Source of the DNA: an uncultured Verrucomicrobia subdivision 3 bacterium
GTDB taxonomy: Bacteria > Verrucomicrobiota > Verrucomicrobiia > Limisphaerales > UBA11358
Direction of reading: 5' to 3'
NCBI GenBank assembly: GCA_903835255.1
Contig: CAILMI010000026.1
Coordinates: 2,740 to 66,739 of the forward strand
Length of the DNA: 64,000 bases
Shown in pieces: positions 45,203 through 57,690 of the stretch. The position numbers were made by a program, and so were the translations under genes. The notes beneath the pieces are model-generated. The model was not told the origin of the DNA and did no database searches. It was given only the letters and a program-made list of their open reading frames with translations. Within the stretch, counting starts at the first letter, position 1. Each line of letters starts with the position of its first letter.

Positions 45203-46984
45203 TTACAGCGCAAGGTTTTTCCGCAACCGCTCCTCCGCCTGTTCGTTGGTCAGGGCTTCCTTCGCACGCAACACCGCCATGCCCACCACCGGCGGATACG
45301 CCTGATCCGCCTTCATGCGCGGCTCCACGTATTCGATGATCTCAAACAGCAGCGCGTTGGCCGCCACATAATCCAAGCGCGTCAGCTGGGCGATGTAACG
45401 CGTCGCACGGTCAATCAACTTCAGATTGCTCGGCACCACCCAAATCATGTAATTGCCCATCACGCGGCCGAGCCGCACCATCGTGCAGGTGGAAACGGCG
45501 TTCATCACCAGCTTCACCGCCACACGCGTCACGCCATCGAGCAGCAAATTCGCTTCGGGCACGGATACCAGAACTGAAATTCCGGCGGCCGACGAAAGAT
45601 CGCCCGCCCGTTCCGGGCCAAAATAAATCAAGCCGGTCTGCGCCTGGTTCTTTTGCGCCGTAGCGAGTTGGTCTAGTTGAAATTGCCGCGCCGACGGCTT
45701 CTCCCCCGCCGCCATGACGGCAATCGCGCTGTCCTTCAATCCGAGCGACCGATGCCGGAGGCCGTGGCGGTCAATTTTGTAGCGCAGCAACTCGGTCGCC
45801 CTGATTTTACCGACGATTTCCAGCGTGCGATCGACTTTCGCCGCCTCCACCAGCCCGCGGACTTCCGCTTCGGCCCACACGACGCAGCGCGGTTCGCGTT
45901 TAAGAATGTTGCGCCAAGCGTCCGACGTCTGCTCGTCAGGCAAAAATAAAAACGCCCAGGATTCGGCGGCCGTGGCGTCGTCAAATTTGCGGAACGGCGG
46001 CGTGCAATAGGTGGGCGAACGCTCGGTCGTGTCCGTTAAAACATCAATGCCCAGGCGATCGGCAAAATAGCTGTTCTGGTGTCCGCTGCGATAAACCGAT
46101 TCCTCCAGCGCAACGATTTTTGCCAGCGCCTCCAGCAGCTCCGGCGAGCGCAGATTTTTGAACAGCTCTTCCAGCCTGGCAAGAAAGTGCGCCGCGACCT
46201 CCGCCGATTTCTGGCCGGAAAGTTCGCAGGCGACGATTTCCAAAATCGCCAGCAAGACGCACAGCTGGATTGACGTCGCCTGCATCCGCGTCGAGCCGGT
46301 GATGCTCATCGGCCCGGTGGCAAGGTTGATCTTTTCGATGCGCGCGTCTTGGATCACCTCGCGGCTGCGCTGAACGTGCTCGCACAAGATGTCATCGGGA
46401 TTGTTATAGACAAAATAAACTTTCGCGCCCGCGTCCACGCCCGCCCAGGCCGTGCCGATGACGAACGAGGTTTCGCCGCCTTCCGTGATGGCGAACACCA
46501 CATCCTTGGCCGACACACCGAGGTCCGCGACTTGTTTTCGACCAAACGCGGTGAAATCCTCGAAGCCTTCCACTGATTTAATGAGCGCGTAATCGCCGCC
46601 AGCCATAACGCTGAAGGTGCGGTTTTCAAAATCAGCGCGGCCGCGCTGCTGCCAGAAATCGCGCCAGATGGAATCCAGCAGAATGCTCAACCGGCCCGTC
46701 GAACCGCAGCCGGTGAAGAAAACCCGCCCGCCGTTTTTAACGGCGGCCAAAACGGTCGCCGCTATTTTTTCCGCGCGGCCGGATGACGCGAACTCGCGAA
46801 ATTTTTTCAGCACGTCTTCATCAGCTTGAAACAGCAAATCCAACGCGGCGGCAATATCGCCTTTTGCCACCTCGCTCAAATGCGCCGTGACCGGGTGCGA
46901 CGATTCGGTGACCAGCGCGCCGAGTTTGAATTGGCCGCTGATCTGCAAAAATTCTTCCGACCGGACTTGAGAACTCGCGCTCAT
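45203..46984 (-). CDS. Double-SIS-domain MurQ/glucokinase-regulator-like sugar-phosphate protein
   Basis: GCGSTGRL, AGG..A....EGFED, TGSTRMQA, and MurQ-like KLVMNAVST..GRVMGNYM..NLKLIDRA; 593 aa, about twice MurQ length. Confidence 0.75.
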   Translation of the reverse strand: MSASSQVRSEEFLQISGQFKLGALVTESSHPVTAHLSEVAKGDIAAALDLLFQADEDVLKKFREFASSGRAEKIAATVLAAVKNGGRVFFTGCGSTGRLSILLDSIWRDFWQQRGRADFENRTFSVMAGGDYALIKSVEGFEDFTAFGRKQVADLGVSAKDVVFAITEGGETSFVIGTAWAGVDAGAKVYFVYNNPDDILCEHVQRSREVIQDARIEKINLATGPMSITGSTRMQATSIQLCVLLAILEIVACELSGQKSAEVAAHFLARLEELFKNLRSPELLEALAKIVALEESVYRSGHQNSYFADRLGIDVLTDTTERSPTYCTPPFRKFDDATAAESWAFLFLPDEQTSDAWRNILKREPRCVVWAEAEVRGLVEAAKVDRTLEIVGKIRATELLRYKIDRHGLRHRSLGLKDSAIAVMAAGEKPSARQFQLDQLATAQKNQAQTGLIYFGPERAGDLSSAAGISVLVSVPEANLLLDGVTRVAVKLVMNAVSTCTMVRLGRVMGNYMIWVVPSNLKLIDRATRYIAQLTRLDYVAANALLFEIIEYVEPRMKADQAYPPVVGMAVLRAKEALTNEQAEERLRKNLAL

Positions 46985-47811
46985 AGATTTGCTTTTGAAA
47001 AAATTGCCGGCTTGGGAAAATTATTGGCCCGCTTGAATTTTTTTGCCGGCGGCGCGGTTTGACATGCCAGCACAAAGCTGCGGAAAATCGCCCGGTAGCA
47101 GGCCCCTTTCTGGACCAGCCGTTCAGGATGAAACTGCACACCCAGGAGGAACGGCATCTGGGCCGCCAGATCCGGCCGAAGTTCAATTGCCTCGACCAGA
47201 CCGTCACAGCTGCGCGCCGTGGCGACAAACGGATCCGCCGGCTCGGCAATTGCCTGATGATGCGTGCTGTTCACGCCCAGGCGGTGTTTCCGGGTGATTT
47301 TTGCCAGCAGCGAGCCGGGCACCACCTCCGTATCGTGCACCAGATCAAACGCCCGATCCATGCGCCGATGGTTCAAGAATCCCGGCGACTGCTTCGCGAT
47401 GTCCGCGATGAGTTTTCCGCCAAACGCCACGTTCAGCAATTGGTGGCCGCGGCAGATGGCCAGCATGGGCTTGCGCTGCCGAAAAATTTCCGCGATCAAA
47501 ATTAATTCAGCCGCGTCGCGCTGGCCCTTGTCCGGCGTCTGCTTCACGGTTTTGAGGATCGCGCGCGGCAGTTTGGCGTCGTAGAGGTTGGGGTTGATGT
47601 CATCGCCGCCGGTAAATAGCACGCCATCCGCATGGCGCACGCTTTCTGCCAGCAAAGCCCGGTCGGTTGTCGCCGGCGCGATGATCGGCAGTCCGCCCGC
47701 CGCCAGGATCGCATTGACATACCGGAGGGATAGGCTGACGGACAAATCACTAAATTCCACACCGCGCAGTTCAACGCTGGGCGTAATCAAAATTAACGGC
47801 GGCCGTTTCAT
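46981..47811 (-). CDS. Gamma-glutamyl-gamma-aminobutyrate hydrolase family (peptidase C26, class I GATase)
   Basis: TGGDDINP, AICRGHQLLNV (Cys), VNSTHHQ, GVQFHPE (His-Glu). Confidence 0.9.
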   Translation of the reverse strand: MKRPPLILITPSVELRGVEFSDLSVSLSLRYVNAILAAGGLPIIAPATTDRALLAESVRHADGVLFTGGDDINPNLYDAKLPRAILKTVKQTPDKGQRDAAELILIAEIFRQRKPMLAICRGHQLLNVAFGGKLIADIAKQSPGFLNHRRMDRAFDLVHDTEVVPGSLLAKITRKHRLGVNSTHHQAIAEPADPFVATARSCDGLVEAIELRPDLAAQMPFLLGVQFHPERLVQKGACYRAIFRSFVLACQTAPPAKKFKRANNFPKPAIFSKANL

Positions 47812-48224: not shown

Positions 48225-49538
48225 GTGCCATTGGTGAAAAATTACGAGGTGAAACAAAACAAAACGGGGCTAGCGGCCTCGCCGCCAGCAAATCGCATCA
48301 TGGTGTTGGGTGTCGGCTCGTTCGCGCACAGCATCGGGCGGGCGCTGGCGGACACCGGCGCGGATGTTTCAACGTATCTCACGCGTAATTATGGTCATTT
48401 TGCACCGTCGCTTGTCGGCAAAACTTTTTCGCACGAGACGTTTCCGAGCCCAGTGCCGCTCTTGAGCAAAAACAAAACGGATGTGGCCATCCCGCAGTCC
48501 ATTGACTGGGCGATGCAGCCGTGGGCGAAAAATATGGTGGAATCGGGTGTTGGCATTTTTAGCCCAACCGGGGAGGCGATGAGGATTGAACGCGAACGCG
48601 ATTTTGCGCGCGAACTTTGCGCGCGCTTCAAGATTCCATTTCCAAAATCCTTCGTTGCGTCTAACCGCATCGAAGCCGAGAAAGTCCTCGAAAAAAATCC
48701 GCAGCCATTCGTCATCAAGAATCCGCTCTGCTCGCCGACCAGCCCGGTTCATACAATTTTGTGTGAAACGGTGTCCGACACGCGCGCCTGGCTTCGGCAG
48801 GTGAATTATGCCGAGGGCGTTTTTTTGCAGGAATATCTCGGTCGTGCCGAGGCCGGGCACATTGCACTCGTCAGCGGCGGCGAAATCCATTCGCTCGTGA
48901 CAAACCAGGAATATAAATACGCCTTCAACGGCAACATGGGCATCGTCGCCGGCGCGCCGCTCGGAGGACTGATCGAACGCGACGAAAACGACAAATACGG
49001 CCTGGCGCGGGAATTGATTCATCCGCTGATGCCTTGGCTGCGCGAAGCCCAGTACCATGGGCCGCTCCAAGTGACCGCCATCAAACGGGGCGGCAAATGG
49101 CACGTCATCGAATACAACATCCGCATCGGCATCACTTCCGGCCCGATGATTTTGCGGATGCTAAAAAAGCCGGCGGAAATTATTTTGCGGACGGCGCGGA
49201 ACGAAAAATTAAAGCTGGAGTTCAAAAATAAATTGAACTTCGGCTGCTCGCTCACGCTGGCCGGTTATGGCTATCCGTTCACGCAGGTGCGCGGGCCGCA
49301 GCTGCCGCTGGAGGTGAACGGCAAATTCGACTGCGACGTGTGGTGGAACGAGGTTGCGCGCGGCGCGGACGGCAAACTCATGACCACCGGCCACCGCATC
49401 GCCGATGTGAGCGCGCTGGCGCCAACTCTCAAAACCGCGATCGCCAAAGCTTACGCCAACATCCGTAAAATCCGGGTCGCGGGCAGTTATTTCCGCACGG
49501 ATGTCGGCCAGAGCTTATGGCCGCCGGGTACAGTTTGA
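48225..49538 (+). CDS. PurD (GAR synthetase)-like ATP-grasp ligase, divergent paralog
   Basis: IEYNIRIG, GYGYP, TTGHRI...AYANI....YFRTDVG resemble the PurD C-terminus; PurD GREHA and KADGLAAGKGV motifs absent; start uncertain. Confidence 0.7.
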   Translation: MPLVKNYEVKQNKTGLAASPPANRIMVLGVGSFAHSIGRALADTGADVSTYLTRNYGHFAPSLVGKTFSHETFPSPVPLLSKNKTDVAIPQSIDWAMQPWAKNMVESGVGIFSPTGEAMRIERERDFARELCARFKIPFPKSFVASNRIEAEKVLEKNPQPFVIKNPLCSPTSPVHTILCETVSDTRAWLRQVNYAEGVFLQEYLGRAEAGHIALVSGGEIHSLVTNQEYKYAFNGNMGIVAGAPLGGLIERDENDKYGLARELIHPLMPWLREAQYHGPLQVTAIKRGGKWHVIEYNIRIGITSGPMILRMLKKPAEIILRTARNEKLKLEFKNKLNFGCSLTLAGYGYPFTQVRGPQLPLEVNGKFDCDVWWNEVARGADGKLMTTGHRIADVSALAPTLKTAIAKAYANIRKIRVAGSYFRTDVGQSLWPPGTV

Positions 49539-49639: not shown

Positions 49640-50791
49640 ATGAAATTGGATTCTGAAAATTTTCCGCTGCGGCCGGCGTGGACTGAGATTGACCTCGGTA
49701 AGCTGCGCCGCAACCTGCAACTCATCCGCAGCGACCTGCCGCGCGGGGTGAAACTGCTCGCCGTCGTGAAAGACGAGGCCTATGGCCATGGCGCCCTCGA
49801 CGTCGCGCGCGTCGCGGTCGAGGAAGGCGCATGGGGCTTTTGCTTGAGCACGCTCGAGGAGGCGATGCTCCTGCGGGAAGGCGGCATCACCGCGCCGCTG
49901 CTGCTTCTCGGCGAACGGCAGGAGGCCGAACTCGAATGGTGCGTCGCGCACCACCTGACGGTTTGCGTGAACGAATTGCACACCGTCCGCAGGCTGGCGA
50001 AAATAGCAGCGGCGTTTGGCAAACAGGTTCCGGTACACGTTAAAATCCACACCGGCATGAGCCGTTACGGCGTGCGCTGGGAAGAGGCGCTGCCGCTCAT
50101 CGAAACAATTGTCGCCGAAAAATCCTTATTGCTCGAAGGCGTGATGACGCATTTCTCGCAGTCGGACGAAGCGGAGAAGAATTTTGCGAACCTTCAATTC
50201 GCGCGGTTCAGCGAAGTGCTGCGCGCGATGGAGCAAAAAGGGATTTCCGTTAAGCTCCGTCACACCTGCAACAGCGGCGGCTTCCTGGATTTGCCTCAGG
50301 CGCATCTGGACATGGTGCGCGTGGGCATTTTGCTTTACGGTGTTTTCCCCTCGCAGGTCTGTCGGAAAATTGAAGGCATCGAACCGGTGATGTCGGTGAA
50401 GGCGAAAATTGCGGCGATCCAAAAACTGAAACCCGGCGAAGTTGTCGGCTACGGGATGCATTACACTGCGCCGTCCGAGCGGCGCATCGCGATTCTTCCT
50501 ATCGGCTACGGCGACGGTTTTCCCCGCGTGCGCAACGAGGGATGCGCGCTCATCCACGGCAGGCGCGCCCCGATCATCGGCGGCATCGCGATGGACGCGC
50601 TGATGGTGGATATCACGGACATTCCGCAGGCGCAGATGTGGGACGAGTCCGTGCTGATGGGCCCGCAAGGCGCCCACGAAATCACCGTGCGCGACATTGC
50701 CAAGCTGAAAAAATCTGTGACATACGACGTGCTGACCAACTGGCGGCTGCGGCTGCGGCGCAAGGCGGTAAACGGTTCAACCACGAATTGA
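49640..50791 (+). CDS. alr: Alanine racemase family protein
   Basis: PLP Lys in AVVKDEAYGHG, KIHTGMSRYG, catalytic Tyr in VGYG, PIGYGDG. Confidence 0.88.
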   Translation: MKLDSENFPLRPAWTEIDLGKLRRNLQLIRSDLPRGVKLLAVVKDEAYGHGALDVARVAVEEGAWGFCLSTLEEAMLLREGGITAPLLLLGERQEAELEWCVAHHLTVCVNELHTVRRLAKIAAAFGKQVPVHVKIHTGMSRYGVRWEEALPLIETIVAEKSLLLEGVMTHFSQSDEAEKNFANLQFARFSEVLRAMEQKGISVKLRHTCNSGGFLDLPQAHLDMVRVGILLYGVFPSQVCRKIEGIEPVMSVKAKIAAIQKLKPGEVVGYGMHYTAPSERRIAILPIGYGDGFPRVRNEGCALIHGRRAPIIGGIAMDALMVDITDIPQAQMWDESVLMGPQGAHEITVRDIAKLKKSVTYDVLTNWRLRLRRKAVNGSTTN

Positions 50792-50854
50792 CACGAACAG
50801 AAACTGTGCCCGCATGATTTGCGGTGCATTGGCGAACTTTCGCGGCTCATTAAA

Positions 50855-51658
50855 ATGAAACTCCTTTTCTCTGAACAAAACTCCGATTACGAGAACTACC
50901 AGTTCCCGTATGCGATCTGGGCCGTTCCCGAACCGGATGAGACGCCAGCGGATATTTTCAACGCCGGATTCCTGCCGTCTTCCCGCAATCTGGACCGGTT
51001 TTATTTGTGTCGCCATGTGCGAGTGAACCTGGCGAAGTTCAAGCCGTCGTCCGAAAATCGCCGCATCCTGCGCAAGGGCGCGGAGATTGAGGTGAAGCTC
51101 GTGGCGCGCGACAAATTCGATTACACGCCGGAACGCCGCCAGTTTTTCAAGACCTACGCCGACATCAAGTTTGGCAAGGACGTGATGACCTACGAGCGTC
51201 TCGACGGGCTGTTCGGCGCGCCGATTATTTCGCATCTGCTCGTATTTACCGATACGGCGAACGGCAAGGAAGTTGGCGTGGCCATGCTGTATCTGGAAGG
51301 CAAGGCGCTGGCGTTTTATTACTATGCTTTCTACGACCTAAATTATTATTCACGAAACCTCGGCATGTTCATGATGACCTCGGCGGTGGCGCTCTTTGCC
51401 GAGCAGGGCAGGGAATTTTTTTATCTGGGCACCTGCTACTCCGACGCGGCGCTTTACAAGACGCAATTTGCCGGCGCGGAATTTTTTAACGGTTTCCGGT
51501 GGTCTTCCAATCTAAAAGAGCTGAAATACATTTTGTGCCGTGACAAAAAAGATTTGCGGCAGCATCTCCTTGAAACCGAGGATTATCGCAAAGAATTTTA
51601 CGGCGGCGATCTTGTCAAAATGACTACCGGAAGCCTGTTTTCAGTCAAGCTGCAGTAG
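50855..51658 (+). CDS. Aminoacyl-tRNA-protein transferase-like (ATE/Bpt fold)
   Basis: R.NL.KFKPSSENRRILRK (ATE_N-like) and YAFYDL....NLG....YLG......YK (ATE_C-like); ATG 50855. Confidence 0.65.
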   Translation: MKLLFSEQNSDYENYQFPYAIWAVPEPDETPADIFNAGFLPSSRNLDRFYLCRHVRVNLAKFKPSSENRRILRKGAEIEVKLVARDKFDYTPERRQFFKTYADIKFGKDVMTYERLDGLFGAPIISHLLVFTDTANGKEVGVAMLYLEGKALAFYYYAFYDLNYYSRNLGMFMMTSAVALFAEQGREFFYLGTCYSDAALYKTQFAGAEFFNGFRWSSNLKELKYILCRDKKDLRQHLLETEDYRKEFYGGDLVKMTTGSLFSVKLQ

Positions 51659-51664
51659 GCGGTT

Positions 51665-52270
51665 TTATCGCGGTCTCACTTGGACGCCCAGCTTCTTTCC
51701 GTCGGTGGCGAATGAGAGGGCTCCCCGATCCAACGCGCCTTCAAACAGGTCGGAGGCGATCAGCAGATTCCCCTCCAAATGCAGGAAATCCCCAGTTCCG
51801 CCAGATGCGCAGCCGCGCGAATCATCACGCTGACTTCGAGCATGCATCCGATCATCGTCTGCAAGCCCGCGTGGCCGCGCCATCTAGGCTCAGCGCGCAC
51901 TTGGCGCTGACGGGAATATCCGGCACGGCTTCGAGATCCGCCATGCTGCCGGGAACATTGCTAAATTTTCCCAAGGTCTAGCTGCGGCAGAAAACTGAGA
52001 AGGCCGTGAGCCGATTTGCCCTACAGGCTGGCCGGCGCGGTCTCGCCGATGGCTGGCAGGCCTAACGCCCGCAGCGGCGAGCTCCACATTCACCGTGCGG
52101 TGAATACCGGAGCCTTGGGAGCTGGCGGTTTTTTGGGGTGGGGCAAGGTTCTGCTCGGACAGGCTTGCGTTCCATTTTACCGGGGAATTCAATAGATTCC
52201 ATCCCGTTTGAAATGCGATTGGAACAATTACGTCCCACCCTGAATTGGCTCTACGCTGTCGGCGTGGCAC
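51665..52270 (-). pseudogene. Decayed L-Ala-D/L-Glu (dipeptide) epimerase, enolase superfamily
   Basis: HAGLQTMIGCMLEVSVMIRAAAHLAEL (frame A) continues after a frameshift near 51790 into DFLHLEGNLLIASDLFEG (frame B); weaker relics ANSGW (~52240) and EQ (~52150); 5' limit approximate. Confidence 0.7.
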
Positions 52271-52949: not shown

Positions 52950-54212
52950 ATGAACCACTATCTTTCTCTGGGGAAATTTTCCTTTGGCATGGGCGACCGT
53001 TTTGGCCAGCAAGGCCGTGCGCAGCTGCGGGCCTGCGTGCTCGCCACCGAACTGGGCGCCCATTTCGTGCCAGTCTGGAACAAATCCAACCGCGAGCATT
53101 CCTTCATCGGCACCGAGCCGTCCAGCTTGCGCGCCGAGGCCGATGCGGCCGTGCAGGCGCTTGGCTGGAAAAGCCCCTATCACGTGGACGCCGATCACAT
53201 CCGCCTAGAGACGGTGGATCGCTTCATCGCGCCCTCGGATTTTTTCACGATTGATGTGGCGGATAGCATCGGCAAGCCGGCCGCCGCCGCCGATGTGAAG
53301 GCGTTTGTGGACCGTCACCCCGAACTCATCGGCACCGTGTCCATCCCGCATATCGACCAGCCTTTTGCCATTTCCCGCGCCGAAGTGGAGCGGGTGGCCA
53401 ACAAATTCCTGCTGGCCGTTCAGGATGCGGGGAAGATCTACCAGCACATCGTCCGGGCCAAGGGCGCGGAGCACTTCATCACCGAAGTTTCCATGGACGA
53501 AACGGACAGCCCGCAGACCCCGCCGGAGCTGCTGATCATCCTGGCGGCGATCGCCGACCAGAAAATCCCCCTGCAGACCATTGCCCCCAAATTCACCGGC
53601 CGTTTTAACAAGGGCGTGGACTACGTGGGGGATGTGAAACAATTCGAGAAGGAATTCAACGAGGACCTCGCCGTCATCGCCTATGCCATCCAAAAATACG
53701 GCCTGCCGCCGTCGCTGAAGCTGAGCGTCCACTCCGGCAGCGACAAATTTTCCATATACGAGCCGATGCGCCGCGCCCTGAAGAAGTTTGATGCGGGGGT
53801 GCACATCAAGACGGCGGGCACGACCTGGCTGGAGGAGATCATCGGGCTGGCGGAAGCGGGCGGGGATGGCCTGGAGATCGCAAAGGAAATCTACGCCTAC
53901 GCGCGGGAGCATGTGGATGAATTCTGCGCGCCTTACGCCAGCGTGATTGACATCAATCCGGCGCAGCTGCCGACGGCGGCGGTGGTAAATGCATGGAGTT
54001 CGGAGCAATTTGTTTCCGCGCTCCGGCACGACCGGAAAAACCCAGGATACAACCCGAGCTTCCGTCAGTTGCTGCATGTGAGCTTCAAGGTGGCGGCGAA
54101 AAAAGGCGACCGCTATCTGAAGGCGCTCAAAAATCACGAGGCAGTTGTGGCCCGGAACGTCACTGAAAACCTGTTTGAGCGGCACATGAAACCCCTGCTG
54201 CTCGGCTCCTAA
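52950..54212 (+). CDS. uxaE: Tagaturonate/fructuronate epimerase (UxaE family)
   Basis: SFGMGDRF, YHVDADHI, EVSMDET, KLSVHSGSDKF, HIKTAGTTWLE; next to uxaC. Confidence 0.85.
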   Translation: MNHYLSLGKFSFGMGDRFGQQGRAQLRACVLATELGAHFVPVWNKSNREHSFIGTEPSSLRAEADAAVQALGWKSPYHVDADHIRLETVDRFIAPSDFFTIDVADSIGKPAAAADVKAFVDRHPELIGTVSIPHIDQPFAISRAEVERVANKFLLAVQDAGKIYQHIVRAKGAEHFITEVSMDETDSPQTPPELLIILAAIADQKIPLQTIAPKFTGRFNKGVDYVGDVKQFEKEFNEDLAVIAYAIQKYGLPPSLKLSVHSGSDKFSIYEPMRRALKKFDAGVHIKTAGTTWLEEIIGLAEAGGDGLEIAKEIYAYAREHVDEFCAPYASVIDINPAQLPTAAVVNAWSSEQFVSALRHDRKNPGYNPSFRQLLHVSFKVAAKKGDRYLKALKNHEAVVARNVTENLFERHMKPLLLGS

Positions 54213-54216
54213 TTTT

Positions 54217-55650
54217 ATGCCCTACATTCACGAGGATTTTCTGTTAAGCACTCCGGCCGCGCGCCGGCTCTACCACAAGTACGCCGAAGCCGAGCCGATT
54301 TTTGATTATCACTGTCATATTCCTCCCCAGGACATTGCCAGCAACCGCCGGTTTAAGAACCTGTTTGAGATCTGGCTGGAGGGCGATCATTACAAGTGGC
54401 GGGCGATGCGCAGCGACGGGGTGGCGGAAAAATTCTGCACCGGGTCAGCCACGCCGCACGACAAGTTTCTCGCCTGGGCCAGGACCGTGCCGCAGACCCT
54501 GCGCAACCCGCTGTATCACTGGACCCATCTCGAGCTCAAACGCTATTTTGGCATCACGGACCTTCTGGATGAAACCACGGCCGAAACAATCTGGCAGCGG
54601 GCGAACGAGCAGCTGGCCACCCCCGCACTCACCACCCAGGGCATCCTTAAGAAATTCAAGGTCAAGGTCGTCTGCACGACGGATGATCCGGTGGACACCC
54701 TAGAACATCACCGCGCCTTTGCGGCCCAGGGTCACCCGACCCGCATGCTGCCGGCATTCCGGCCGGACCGGGCGCTCATTGTGAATGCCCCCGCCGCCTT
54801 CAACCGGTGGGTGGAGCAGCTGTCTGCCGCCGCAAATGTGGACATCAACAGCTTTGGCGCCTTCACTCTGGCGCTGGAGAAGCGCCATGCCTTTTTCCAT
54901 TCGCAGGGCTGCCGGTTATCCGACCATGGATTGAACCATTGCCATGCCGATTTCTGTACAGAGAAGGTGGCCGCCGGCATTTTCGACAAGGCCCGCCGCG
55001 GCGGGCAGGTGACGCCGGAGGAACACTCCCAGTTCGCCTCGTTTATGATGGTGCTGTTTGGGCAGCTCGACGCGAAGCGAGGCTGGACCAAGCAGCTGCA
55101 TCTCGGGGCACTGCGCAGCAACAACAGCCGGCTGCTCAAGCAGATCGGCCCGGACACGGGCTTTGATTCGATTGGGGATTTCCCTCAGGCGCAAACGCTC
55201 GCCGCTTATCTCAACCGGCTGGACTCCGAAAACACCCTGCCCAAGACGGTCATTTACAACCTGAATCCGGCGGACAACTACGTCTTCGCCTCGATGATCG
55301 GGAATTTTCAGGATGGCACCTCCGCCGGCAAAATCCAGTATGGGTCCGGCTGGTGGTTTCTCGACCAGAAAGAAGGCATGGAGATGCAGATCAATGCGCT
55401 GTCCAACCTCGGCCTGCTGGCCCGATTCATCGGCATGATCACCGACTCGCGCTCGTTCATGAGCTATCCGCGACATGAATATTTCCGGCGGACGCTGTGC
55501 AATCTGGTCGGCCGCGACATTGCGAACGGCGAGATTCCCGACGATGAAAAGCTGGTCGGCCCGATGATCCGGAACATCTGCTATGCCAACGCAAAGCAGT
55601 ACATGGCTTTTCCCGGCATGGACGACCCCGCGCCCAAAAAGAAAAAATAA
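54217..55650 (+). CDS. uxaC: Uronate (glucuronate) isomerase
   Basis: IFDYHCH, GDHYKWRAMR, GSGWWFLDQ, TDSRSFMSYPRHEYFRR. Confidence 0.97.
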   Translation: MPYIHEDFLLSTPAARRLYHKYAEAEPIFDYHCHIPPQDIASNRRFKNLFEIWLEGDHYKWRAMRSDGVAEKFCTGSATPHDKFLAWARTVPQTLRNPLYHWTHLELKRYFGITDLLDETTAETIWQRANEQLATPALTTQGILKKFKVKVVCTTDDPVDTLEHHRAFAAQGHPTRMLPAFRPDRALIVNAPAAFNRWVEQLSAAANVDINSFGAFTLALEKRHAFFHSQGCRLSDHGLNHCHADFCTEKVAAGIFDKARRGGQVTPEEHSQFASFMMVLFGQLDAKRGWTKQLHLGALRSNNSRLLKQIGPDTGFDSIGDFPQAQTLAAYLNRLDSENTLPKTVIYNLNPADNYVFASMIGNFQDGTSAGKIQYGSGWWFLDQKEGMEMQINALSNLGLLARFIGMITDSRSFMSYPRHEYFRRTLCNLVGRDIANGEIPDDEKLVGPMIRNICYANAKQYMAFPGMDDPAPKKKK

Positions 55651-55716
55651 TCACGAGTCCGGCACTTAAAAAACCGGGGCACCGGCGCGGTTTTGCCGGC
55701 CCGCCCAGAATCCACC

Positions 55717-56232
55717 ATGAGCCGTCGCCTCTTCCTTTTTTTGTCCCTGGCATTGCCGCTGGGTGCGGCGACCTTTAGCGTGCGAGACTTCGGCGCCTCC
55801 GGCGACGGCAAATCCATGGATACGGCGTCGATCCAAAAGGCGCTGGACGCCCGCCAGCCCGCCGGCGGCACGGTGCTCTTCCCGCCCGGCACCTATTTGA
55901 GCCAGCCGCTGACGCTTCGCACCCGGACCACGGTGCTGCTGGATCCCGGCGCCACATTGCTGGCCAGCACGAACCAGGCACATTTCATGAAGGTGCCCGG
56001 CGACTGGCTGGCGGCGAAAAGCGGCAGTGATTTCATCCCATTTCTGGGCGGCAAGGATCTGGAGGAAGTCCGTTTGACCGGCGGCGGCGTGATTGACGGG
56101 AATGGCGCGGCCTGGTGGGGCGAGGCGGAAAAAGCGCGCCAGAAAAAAACCGGCTACACCCTGCCCCGGCCGAACCTGGTCGTCCTCGAGAACTCGCAGG
56201 TGACGGGCCTGGACCCAAAACAATCCCCGTGA
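55717..56232 (+). pseudogene. Truncated GH28 / pectate-lyase-fold glycoside hydrolase (N-terminal part only)
   Basis: Signal peptide, VRDFGASGDG, PPGTYLS, GGGVIDGNG, RP; stops before the catalytic NxD/DD/GHG/RxK motifs. Confidence 0.7.
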
Positions 56233-56328
56233 GCCTCGGCTCACAAATCACCAACAGATTTACAGACAGACTCGCTAAAAATCCGCGGCAATCCTCACAG
56301 CAGACAAACACAGCAGACAATTCATCCC

Positions 56329-57690
56329 ATGAAAAAACAATTCCTCCTCTCGGTGCTCGGACTGATGATCTCCCTCCCCCTTCGCGCGGCGCCGTCGGAA
56401 TGGGATCAGGTGCCGGAGATCCTGGCGCGCATCGTCCCGCCGCAATTTCCTGCGCGCGACTTTGTCATCACGCGGTATGGCGCGGTCGGGGATGGCAAGG
56501 CGGACTGCGGCGGCGCGATCCGGAAGGCGATTGCCGCCTGCGCTGAAGCGGGCGGCGGGAGGGTTGTGGTTCCCGCCGGCGACTTTCTGACCGGCCCGGT
56601 CCATCTGCTGAGCGGGGTGAATCTGCATCTGGAAACGAATGCCGTGCTGCGATTCAGCACCGACCCCCAAGCTTATTTGCCCGCCGTATTCACTCGATTC
56701 GAGGGAATCGAATGCTACAACTACTCGCCCCTGATCTATGCGTTTGAACAAAAAAACGTCGCCGTGACCGGGGCCGGAATGCTGGACGGCCAGGCGGCTG
56801 AATCCAACTGGCTGGCGTGGAAAGGCCAGAAAAACAAGGAGGACGGAACGCAAAAGGCGGCGCGCGCGCGCCTTGTAAAAATGATGGAGGCCAACACGCC
56901 CGTCGCCGAACGCCGTTTCGGGGCAGGCGATTTCCTGCGCCCGAGCTTCGTCGAATTCAACCGCTGCCAGAACGTCCTGATCGAAGGGGTCCGCATTCGC
57001 CGCTCGCCGATGTGGGAGCTGCACCCCCTGCTCTGTACCAACGTTACCGTGCGCGGTGTGGACATCGTCTCGCACGGGGCCAACAACGACGGGTGCGACC
57101 CGGAAAGCTGCACGGACGTGCTGATCGAAGGCTGCCTGTTCGATACCGGCGACGACTGCATCGCCATCAAATCCGGGCGGAATGCCGACGGCCGCCGCGT
57201 GGGCGTGCCGTCCCAGAACATTGTTGTGCGGAATTGCACGATGCGGGACGGCCACGGCGGCGTGACCATTGGCAGCGAAATCTCCGGCAGCTGCAGCAAC
57301 GTCTTTGTGGAGAACTGCGAGATGAGCAGTCCGGACCTGACCTGCGCGCTGCGGCTGAAATCCAACGCCATGCGCGGCGGGGTGCTGCAGAATATCTTCA
57401 TGCGCAACGTGAAGGTCGGACGGGTTTCGGATTCCGTGTTACAGATCGATTTCCTTTATGAGGAAGGTGCCCGGGGCAGCTTCAATCCCGTCGCCCGGAA
57501 CATCGTGATGGAAAATATCCAGGGGGCAGACATTCCGCGCGTGCTGAACGTGAGGGGGTTTCCCGGCGCCAGCATCCGCGGGGTGCGGATTTATAACTCA
57601 ACGTTCCGGCAGATTAAAAAGCCCGATGTGGTCATCGACGCCGACGTGACGCTGGTGGATTGCAAGCTGGAACCCTATCGTCCGAATTAA
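56329..57690 (+). CDS. Glycoside hydrolase family 28 (polygalacturonase-like)
   Basis: NNDG, GDDCIAIKSG, GHGG.TIGSE, LRLKS; signal peptide. Confidence 0.93.
   Translation: MKKQFLLSVLGLMISLPLRAAPSEWDQVPEILARIVPPQFPARDFVITRYGAVGDGKADCGGAIRKAIAACAEAGGGRVVVPAGDFLTGPVHLLSGVNLHLETNAVLRFSTDPQAYLPAVFTRFEGIECYNYSPLIYAFEQKNVAVTGAGMLDGQAAESNWLAWKGQKNKEDGTQKAARARLVKMMEANTPVAERRFGAGDFLRPSFVEFNRCQNVLIEGVRIRRSPMWELHPLLCTNVTVRGVDIVSHGANNDGCDPESCTDVLIEGCLFDTGDDCIAIKSGRNADGRRVGVPSQNIVVRNCTMRDGHGGVTIGSEISGSCSNVFVENCEMSSPDLTCALRLKSNAMRGGVLQNIFMRNVKVGRVSDSVLQIDFLYEEGARGSFNPVARNIVMENIQGADIPRVLNVRGFPGASIRGVRIYNSTFRQIKKPDVVIDADVTLVDCKLEPYRPN

Follow-up and report, generated by a model that had tools for sequence, protein, structure and literature searches.

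A Cys-less relative of Ate1/Bpt linked to peptidoglycan genes: a candidate aminoacyl-tRNA transferase for stem-peptide synthesis where MurC or MurD is missing

The window analysed here, a stretch of 64,000 nucleotides from an uncultured Verrucomicrobia subdivision 3 bacterium, carries a three-gene cassette on the plus strand, the last member of which encodes a 267-residue ATE/Bpt-like transferase of a Cys-less subfamily (50855..51658), so named from its open reading frame and translation, its ATE_C score of 24.9 bits and its predicted fold. The reading frame is intact from the ATG at 50855 to the TAG at 51656-51658, and translation is unlikely to start further upstream, at the in-frame TTG at 50819, since the sequences of homologs open with the Met-Lys. 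The middle gene of the cassette, separated from the ATE-like gene by 63 nt, is an alanine racemase gene, alr (49640..50791, plus strand), which scores 357 bits with TIGR00492 against a cut-off of 168 bits. It is preceded on the same strand by the first cassette gene (48225..49538), encoding a PurD-like ATP-grasp ligase that matches GARS_A and GARS_C and reaches 113 bits with the purD model, below the 288-bit cut-off. In the genome as a whole (3.17 Mb in 70 contigs, 97.5% complete), the ATE-like gene is present as a single copy, BLASTP against all open reading frames recovers no alr homolog besides the one in the cassette, and the PurD-like protein is a paralog of a true PurD candidate that is encoded elsewhere and shares 20% identity with it. 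Scans for promoters and terminators at the ATE-like locus gave nothing better than shuffled sequence.

The cassette is a conserved unit. The order purD-like-alr-ATE-like is kept in 14-15 of 20 relatives, and across the 20 neighbourhoods compared the PurD-like gene and alr are the only conserved neighbours, remaining in the same order and on the same strand, often overlapping, down to 45% identity. The PurD-like and ATE-like genes occur together in 51 of the 57 genomes that hold either, and no epimerase, Mpl, MurF or Ddl gene adjoins the cassette in the 20 relatives. One database protein of 424 residues (P0085) joins an Ala_racemase_C segment to ATE-like sequence; this reflects a true fusion of alr and ATE, or else an annotated gene that reads through a 4-nt overlap. 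The initial annotation had described the neighbours as alr and an ATP-grasp gene rather than clpS and aat, and this description holds: both neighbours lie upstream, and neither ClpS (PF02617) nor Aat (PF03588) was found anywhere in the 97.5%-complete genome.

Several other features flank the cassette. Divergent from it are the genes for a double-SIS MurQ-like protein of 593 residues and a C26 gamma-glutamyl hydrolase (45203-47811, minus strand), neither of which is conserved beside it in relatives. Directly downstream of the ATE-like gene, and convergent with it, are dipeptide-epimerase-like remnants (51668-52180, minus strand) that are spread over three reading frames and have lost internal parts; residues 1-37, 73-108, 277-303 and 304-346 can still be recognised. 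They are a paralog of an intact gene elsewhere in the genome (C40:32827-33876), and no such neighbour is seen in the 20 relatives. Past the cassette region, UxaE, UxaC and a GH28 glycoside hydrolase (52950-57690; pectin/hexuronate use) appear unrelated to the ATE-like gene.

The sole Pfam match of the ATE-like protein is to ATE_C, over residues 136-210, and its 24.9 bits against a cut-off of 25 is a borderline score that indicates a remote relative. Among 71 family members, ATE_C is matched by 60 at E<=0.01, Acetyltransf_6 by 43 and Acetyltransf_1 by 14; ATE_N is matched by neither the ATE-like protein nor any of the 71, and FemAB (PF02388) by none of them at E<=0.01. NCBIfam arginyltransferase models align with residues 52-217 (E 7e-14), the best of them at 51.8 bits, far below its cut-off of 170. 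Database names vary, some members being called GNAT family N-acetyltransferase and many being called arginyl-tRNA-protein transferase by JGI pipelines. When the family profile is compared with PDB sequences, the GNAT acetyltransferase 3d8p is found at E 3e-6, equal to or better than Ate1, and the Ate1 alignment does not reach the N-lobe. Sequence profiles do match GNATs; at the position of the acyl-CoA pyrophosphate-binding loop (Q/R-x-x-G-x-G/A), the protein reads R-N-L-G-M-F, with G170 alone conserved.

Conservation of the family is far beyond chance. A total of 2818 proteins were found, the best 120 of the 2818 at 80% identity or above, and a search of 1.8 billion representatives returned 481 clusters, in which full-length relatives share 25-42% identity and are all 230-270 residues long. 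Look-alikes were also seen in the ESM Atlas, where one cluster consists of 224-residue ATE_C/GNAT proteins that are mostly phage-encoded (Uroviricota) and another comes from Bacteroidota. R56, Y201, K202 and G213 are invariant in the 71-sequence alignment. The initial annotation noted the lack of the usual N-terminal Cys-Pro-Tyr region; the segment itself is present and conserved (Y12, Y15 and F17-P18-Y19) but has no Cys motif, and no conserved Cys occurs anywhere in the alignment, residues 1-75 included.

Genuine ATE_N+ATE_C paralogs, recognisable by a G-W-R-R/H-F-G motif, also exist in the order to which the bacterium belongs, and in six genomes they are found alongside the ATE-like gene. 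Alignment of the family with these paralogs by hhalign gives a probability of 99.1% (E 6e-19) over residues 24-217, and in a tree (quick search only) 92 family members split from the paralogs on a long, fully supported branch. The ATE-like protein is a Cys-less offshoot of the Ate1/Bpt fold, in a clade apart from the true paralogs. Of the two segments named in the initial annotation, the ATE_C-like one is recovered by Pfam and homology in the N-lobe by hhalign, but ATE_N as such is not matched by its profile. Some genuine ATE_N+ATE_C paralogs in the order are Cys-less too (L040:5693-6547 in genome G324, and L072-L080); the one in G324 is divergent from the cassette and adjoins it.

The AlphaFold model (pLDDT 95, pTM 0.91) retrieves human, yeast and K. 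lactis ATE1 first in Foldseek (E 6e-10), followed by FemX, the peptide synthases Sba18/Sbb17, which depend on tRNA, and MprF; FemX, Sbb17 and MprF are, like ATE1, aminoacyl-tRNA transferases. An independent all-against-all structure search aligns human ATE1 over 241 residues, spanning the model from 1 to 267, at Z 16.5, ahead of K. lactis Ate1 (14.7), MprF (13.1), FemX (11.2 and 10.5) and FemA (9.6); ordinary single-domain GNATs score about 10, and the FemX and FemA matches lie mainly in the C-lobe. The profile and structure comparisons proposed with the initial annotation thus come out in favour of ATE1 and the ATE paralogs, with Pfam FemAB unmatched and FemX the weaker match of fold.

The invariant Y201-K202 pair aligns to Y303-K304 of Ate1, whose catalytic Lys, K304, corresponds to K305 of FemX (PMC9351520). 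The Ate1 residues that bind Arg, S255, S273, E277 and Y289, are replaced by F154, M173, A177 and F189; because these pocket-aligned positions hold no acidic residue, Arg would be an unlikely donor, and a small or apolar donor is plausible. In K. lactis Ate1, Cys23/26/95/96 form the Zn/Fe-S site and R80 recognises acidic protein N-termini (PMC9351520). In the hhalign alignment a nearly invariant G-F-L-P of the ATE-like family falls on the G-W-R-R of the paralogs, such that Leu-Pro stands in place of the Arg pair. It is in this G-W-R-R motif that we take R80 of Ate1 to lie. The family therefore has in common with Ate1/Bpt (PF04376+PF04377) the two-lobed fold along its whole length, profile homology and the Tyr-Lys pair, but differs in having no Zn/Fe-S Cys cluster, no ATE_N match and no Arg pair, as well as in its lack of a ClpS partner, its linkage to mur genes and its separate clade. 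That aminoacyl-tRNA is the donor is suggested by the fold and the conserved Lys.

The ligases of the MurC-MurF series serve as an antibiotic target and, to our knowledge, are regarded as common to all bacteria that have peptidoglycan. In the genome that carries the cassette, MurC, MurD and MurE are all absent, the only Mur-ligase-family genes in the genome being MurF, Mpl and FolC, and MurI was not found in the genome either. MurA/B-type steps, Mpl, MurF and Ddl are retained, and the Mpl assignment is firm (449 bits against a cut-off of 388.7, with a murC score of 309.6 that falls below 335.1). The dcw cluster (contig C55:142000-161500, locus L007) reads rsmH-ftsI-(SIMPL-like)-murF-mraY-(LysM protein)-ftsW-murG-murB-ddl-ftsQAZ, with no murE, murD or murC. 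A SIMPL/DUF541 protein is encoded between ftsI and murF in this cluster, and a LysM-domain protein (L007:11513-12259, minus strand) occupies the position expected for murD. The genome also has the intact dipeptide-epimerase-like gene on C40 and an ambiguous fold-type-IV aminotransferase. We considered the epimerase-like gene as a source of D-Glu and gave up the idea of a specific link: genomes that have the cassette and genomes that do not hold an ortholog equally often, and neither congener has one.

Distribution was examined in a fixed set of 151 genomes from the order; these are related and are not independent observations, so that Fisher values overstate the support. The ATE-like gene is present in 54 of them, 51 of which also have the PurD-like gene. 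MurC is found in none of the 54 genomes with the ATE-like gene and in 62 of the 97 without it; the corresponding figures are 5 and 69 for MurE, 17 and 76 for MurD or a MurD-like protein, and 1 and 44 for MurI. Mpl is near universal across the 151. Many of the genomes that lack MurE and MurC retain a MurD-like gene that scores lower than usual, at about 190-350 bits where standard MurD reaches 370-420 (for example G270:C95:25549-26082, G224, G235 and G201); this gene may have changed role. At the same time, 24 genomes have neither the cassette nor MurC/MurE, and their set of Mur-family ligases is limited to Mpl, MurF and FolC (G251, G221, G230, G246 and G235, for example); some are near complete, and some are congeneric with carriers (G251 and G322). 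Because of these 24 genomes, the cassette cannot be the sole source of the peptide in this order, and there must be either scavenging or some additional route. Some backgrounds can do without the cassette, and a model in which it is an obligatory replacement for MurC-E is weakened. Elsewhere in the phylum, a 201-genome sample yielded a single distant family member, in a genome of another class (G069), where it is convergent with an extra MurE paralog and adjoins gltB/gltD, in the presence of a full Mur set.

A second phylum gives a complementary picture. In one order of Patescibacteria, the family is present in 18 of 151 genomes, and MurD is found in only 1 of these 18, against 98 of the 133 genomes without the family. 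In 9 of the roughly 10 loci with sufficient flanking sequence, the homolog lies directly downstream of a MurC/Mpl-like gene and is translationally coupled to it, the partner scoring 240-263 bits with the murC model, below the cut-off. Five Patescibacteria carriers have a MurC-like protein, a short MurE and a MurF-like protein only, with no MurD. In five Patescibacteria loci, a PgeF/YfiH-like (Cu-oxidase_4) gene lies 3' of the ATE-like homolog, with a weak Pfam match of 34 bits in one (L052:8774-9655) and a match below the cut-off in another (L049:3176-4015). The PgeF/YfiH family edits residue 1 of the stem peptide.

Metagenomic contigs place the gene inside mur operons. In a set of 80 loci found with a sister clade as query, a set that includes near-duplicates and 22 uninformative loci, MurE is immediately upstream of the ATE-like gene in 24, alr in 16 and MraY in 8, the last being the normal slot of murD, and a MurC/Mpl-like gene is immediately downstream in 33. 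Neither MurD, MurI nor a canonical MurC occurs in any of the 80. In L105, overlapping genes are arranged as rsmH-ftsI-murE(short)-ATE-like-murC-like-murB-murA-ddl-murF-mraY, and in L172 the order murF-like-mraY-ATE-like-mpl-like again puts the ATE-like gene in the usual slot of murD. Two ORFs in the L105 operon have no PDB relatives and are not MurI. The MurE proteins found with the family in Patescibacteria and in the metagenomic operons are short, at about 410-425 residues (L054:1269-2528, L057:1372-2646 and L105:6778-8004), and are without the N-terminal domain of standard MurE; the first residue of the short MurE corresponds to residue 97 in T. maritima MurE, and domain 1 is thus missing. 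In established MurE structures, domain 1 holds the UDP moiety.

Overall, we believe that the ATE-like family most likely works in peptidoglycan precursor synthesis and not in protein degradation. Within this setting, the specific reading towards which we lean, with some reserve, is that the ATE-like protein acts as an aminoacyl-tRNA transferase, coupling the first residue of the stem peptide (residue 1, probably L-Ala) to glutamate off the nucleotide, with Mpl-type loading afterwards. For example, consider a cell that has the cassette and no MurC, MurD or MurE. The ATE-like enzyme would move an amino acid from aminoacyl-tRNA, most likely L-Ala-tRNA, to glutamate, acylating its alpha-amino group; the glutamate could be free or could already carry diaminopimelate (gamma-Glu-DAP). 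This would make the first bond of the stem peptide away from UDP-MurNAc. The bond between the glutamate gamma-carboxyl and the diamino acid would be formed by an ATP-dependent ligase, the PurD-like ATP-grasp enzyme in this genome and the domain-1-less MurE in other lineages. A ligase of the Mpl/MurC type would then load the finished peptide onto UDP-MurNAc, and MurF would add D-Ala-D-Ala. The order of the two bonds could be either of those just given, and glutamate as acceptor is argued from gene context, the acceptor-binding Arg of Ate1 not being conserved. Against the scheme count the 24 genomes that have neither the cassette nor MurC/MurE, the absence of MurI as a source of D-Glu, the five carriers that keep MurE and the 17 that keep a MurD-like gene, and the full Mur set of G069.

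An aminoacyl-tRNA transferase acylates amines only, and therefore cannot extend UDP-MurNAc-L-Ala at its carboxyl end. Of the two bonds in the stem tripeptide, the one from Ala to Glu would suit a tRNA-dependent transferase, and the one from the Glu gamma-carboxyl to DAP would suit an ATP-dependent carboxylate ligase, such that the cassette would supply one enzyme for each type of bond and Mpl would supply the loading. MurD would become needless, as would MurC and MurE in this genome, and off-nucleotide assembly would account for the loss of MurD with the family and of MurC and MurE here. The pathway would end in the known UDP-MurNAc:L-Ala-gamma-D-Glu-meso-DAP ligase reaction of the Mpl route, but with MurC-E absent, its substrate would be a peptide newly synthesised off the nucleotide. 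In the bacteria known to us, the role of Mpl is confined to recycling peptide that MurC-E made before.

Transfer of an amino acid from charged tRNA to a free, amino-acid-like amine has precedents in DhpH-C, DhpK, PacB, VlmA and Orf11, and DhpH-C itself uses Leu-tRNA and an analogue of an amino acid to form a dipeptide (PMC12945691). The structures of Sbb17 and Sba18 are among the fold matches of the ATE-like model. Enzymes of the DhpH-C type, however, are Fem-like double-GNAT proteins of actinomycete secondary metabolism, whereas the ATE-like family is widespread and embedded in primary cell-wall operons.

The most serious alternative, though an unlikely one, is that the family comprises branch transferases of the Fem kind, which would use aminoacyl-tRNA to acylate the free side-chain amine at residue 3 of a UDP-MurNAc-peptide or lipid II, the racemase and the ATP-grasp ligase contributing a D-amino acid to that bridge. 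Residue 3 of the finished stem is the site that Fem enzymes decorate, and the D-Asp ligase of Enterococcus works with its racemase in this way on the bridge. The ATE-like protein resembles FemX, FemABX and MurM in its GNAT fold and catalytic Lys, and by prediction in using aminoacyl-tRNA to form a peptide bond of a cell-wall precursor; its fold matches include FemX and FemA at Z 9.6-11.2, its gene is linked to cell-wall genes, its patchy and dispensable distribution within genera fits an accessory modification, and in G069 it stands beside a complete Mur set. Yet ATE1 is clearly the closer fold and FemAB is unmatched in Pfam, and Fem enzymes coexist with MurC-F, whereas the ATE-like family is found in genomes without MurC or MurD, and in the place of murD. 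A branching role leaves unexplained the absence of MurC from all 54 carriers in the one order and of MurD from all but 1 of 18 in the other, the position after mraY in the slot of murD, and the flanking by murE and murC-like genes in mur operons that are otherwise complete and murD-less. The Fem analogy of the initial annotation, then, is borne out for the cell-wall peptide setting but not for the site of action, for which distribution and gene positions point to the core stem in lieu of MurC/MurD and not to a side branch.

Somewhat more doubtful is the idea that the enzyme serves salvage alone, re-attaching L-Ala to imported or recycled gamma-D-Glu-DAP for use by Mpl, with the net peptide drawn from the environment. 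The near universality of Mpl in the order is in keeping with this, the 24 genomes with Mpl and MurF and no cassette suggest that scavenging is viable, and the window also has the MurQ-like and gamma-glutamyl hydrolase genes and the decayed dipeptide epimerase. The metagenomic operons nevertheless place the gene with murA, murB, ddl, murF and mraY, as in de novo synthesis, and identity of at least 80% across many genomes (the best 120 of 2818) suggests a core role.

We regard as improbable a third reading, in which the protein is an acyl-CoA-dependent GNAT N-acyltransferase that makes no use of tRNA and acts on an amino acid or a cell-wall intermediate. It would account for the match to 3d8p at least as good as that to Ate1, for the Acetyltransf_6 and Acetyltransf_1 matches in 43 and 14 of the 71 members, and for the members named as GNATs, but the whole-length match to ATE1 at Z 16.5 is well above that of single-domain GNATs at about 10, the homology to the ATE_N+ATE_C paralogs takes in the N-lobe, and a missing peptide ligase would not be made good by an acetyltransferase. 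Finally, although many members are named arginyl-tRNA-protein transferase by JGI and NCBIfam arginyltransferase models match weakly, an ordinary Bpt-type N-degron role, the transfer of Leu or Arg to N-terminal Asp/Glu for ClpS/ClpAP, is very improbable and was rejected, with ClpS and Aat not found in the genome, no score anywhere near an equivalog cut-off, no ATE_N, Cys cluster or Arg pair, and true ATE_N+ATE_C paralogs coexisting in six genomes as a separate clade. The suggestion in the initial annotation that the acceptor is not a protein gains support from the same absence of ClpS and Aat, from the change of the Arg pair to Leu-Pro and from the peptidoglycan genes that accompany the family in three independent settings, all of which would suit a small molecule or cell-wall peptide.

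The complementary distribution with MurC or MurD in two phyla, together with the placement of the ATE-like gene in mur operons, is what this work adds, and in the literature searched no description of such a tRNA-dependent route to the stem peptide was found. Whether stem assembly off the nucleotide operates in several lineages, replacing the supposedly universal MurC/MurD(/MurE) steps, is in our judgement evenly balanced; the lineages concerned may include this soil Verrucomicrobiota order, some Patescibacteria and further uncultured groups. If true, a tRNA-dependent bypass would change the textbook pathway of peptidoglycan synthesis, and would explain the many environmental genomes that seem to miss essential mur genes. 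It would also provide the first non-protein acceptor for the Ate1/Bpt fold, and would tie cell-wall synthesis directly to the pool of charged tRNA.
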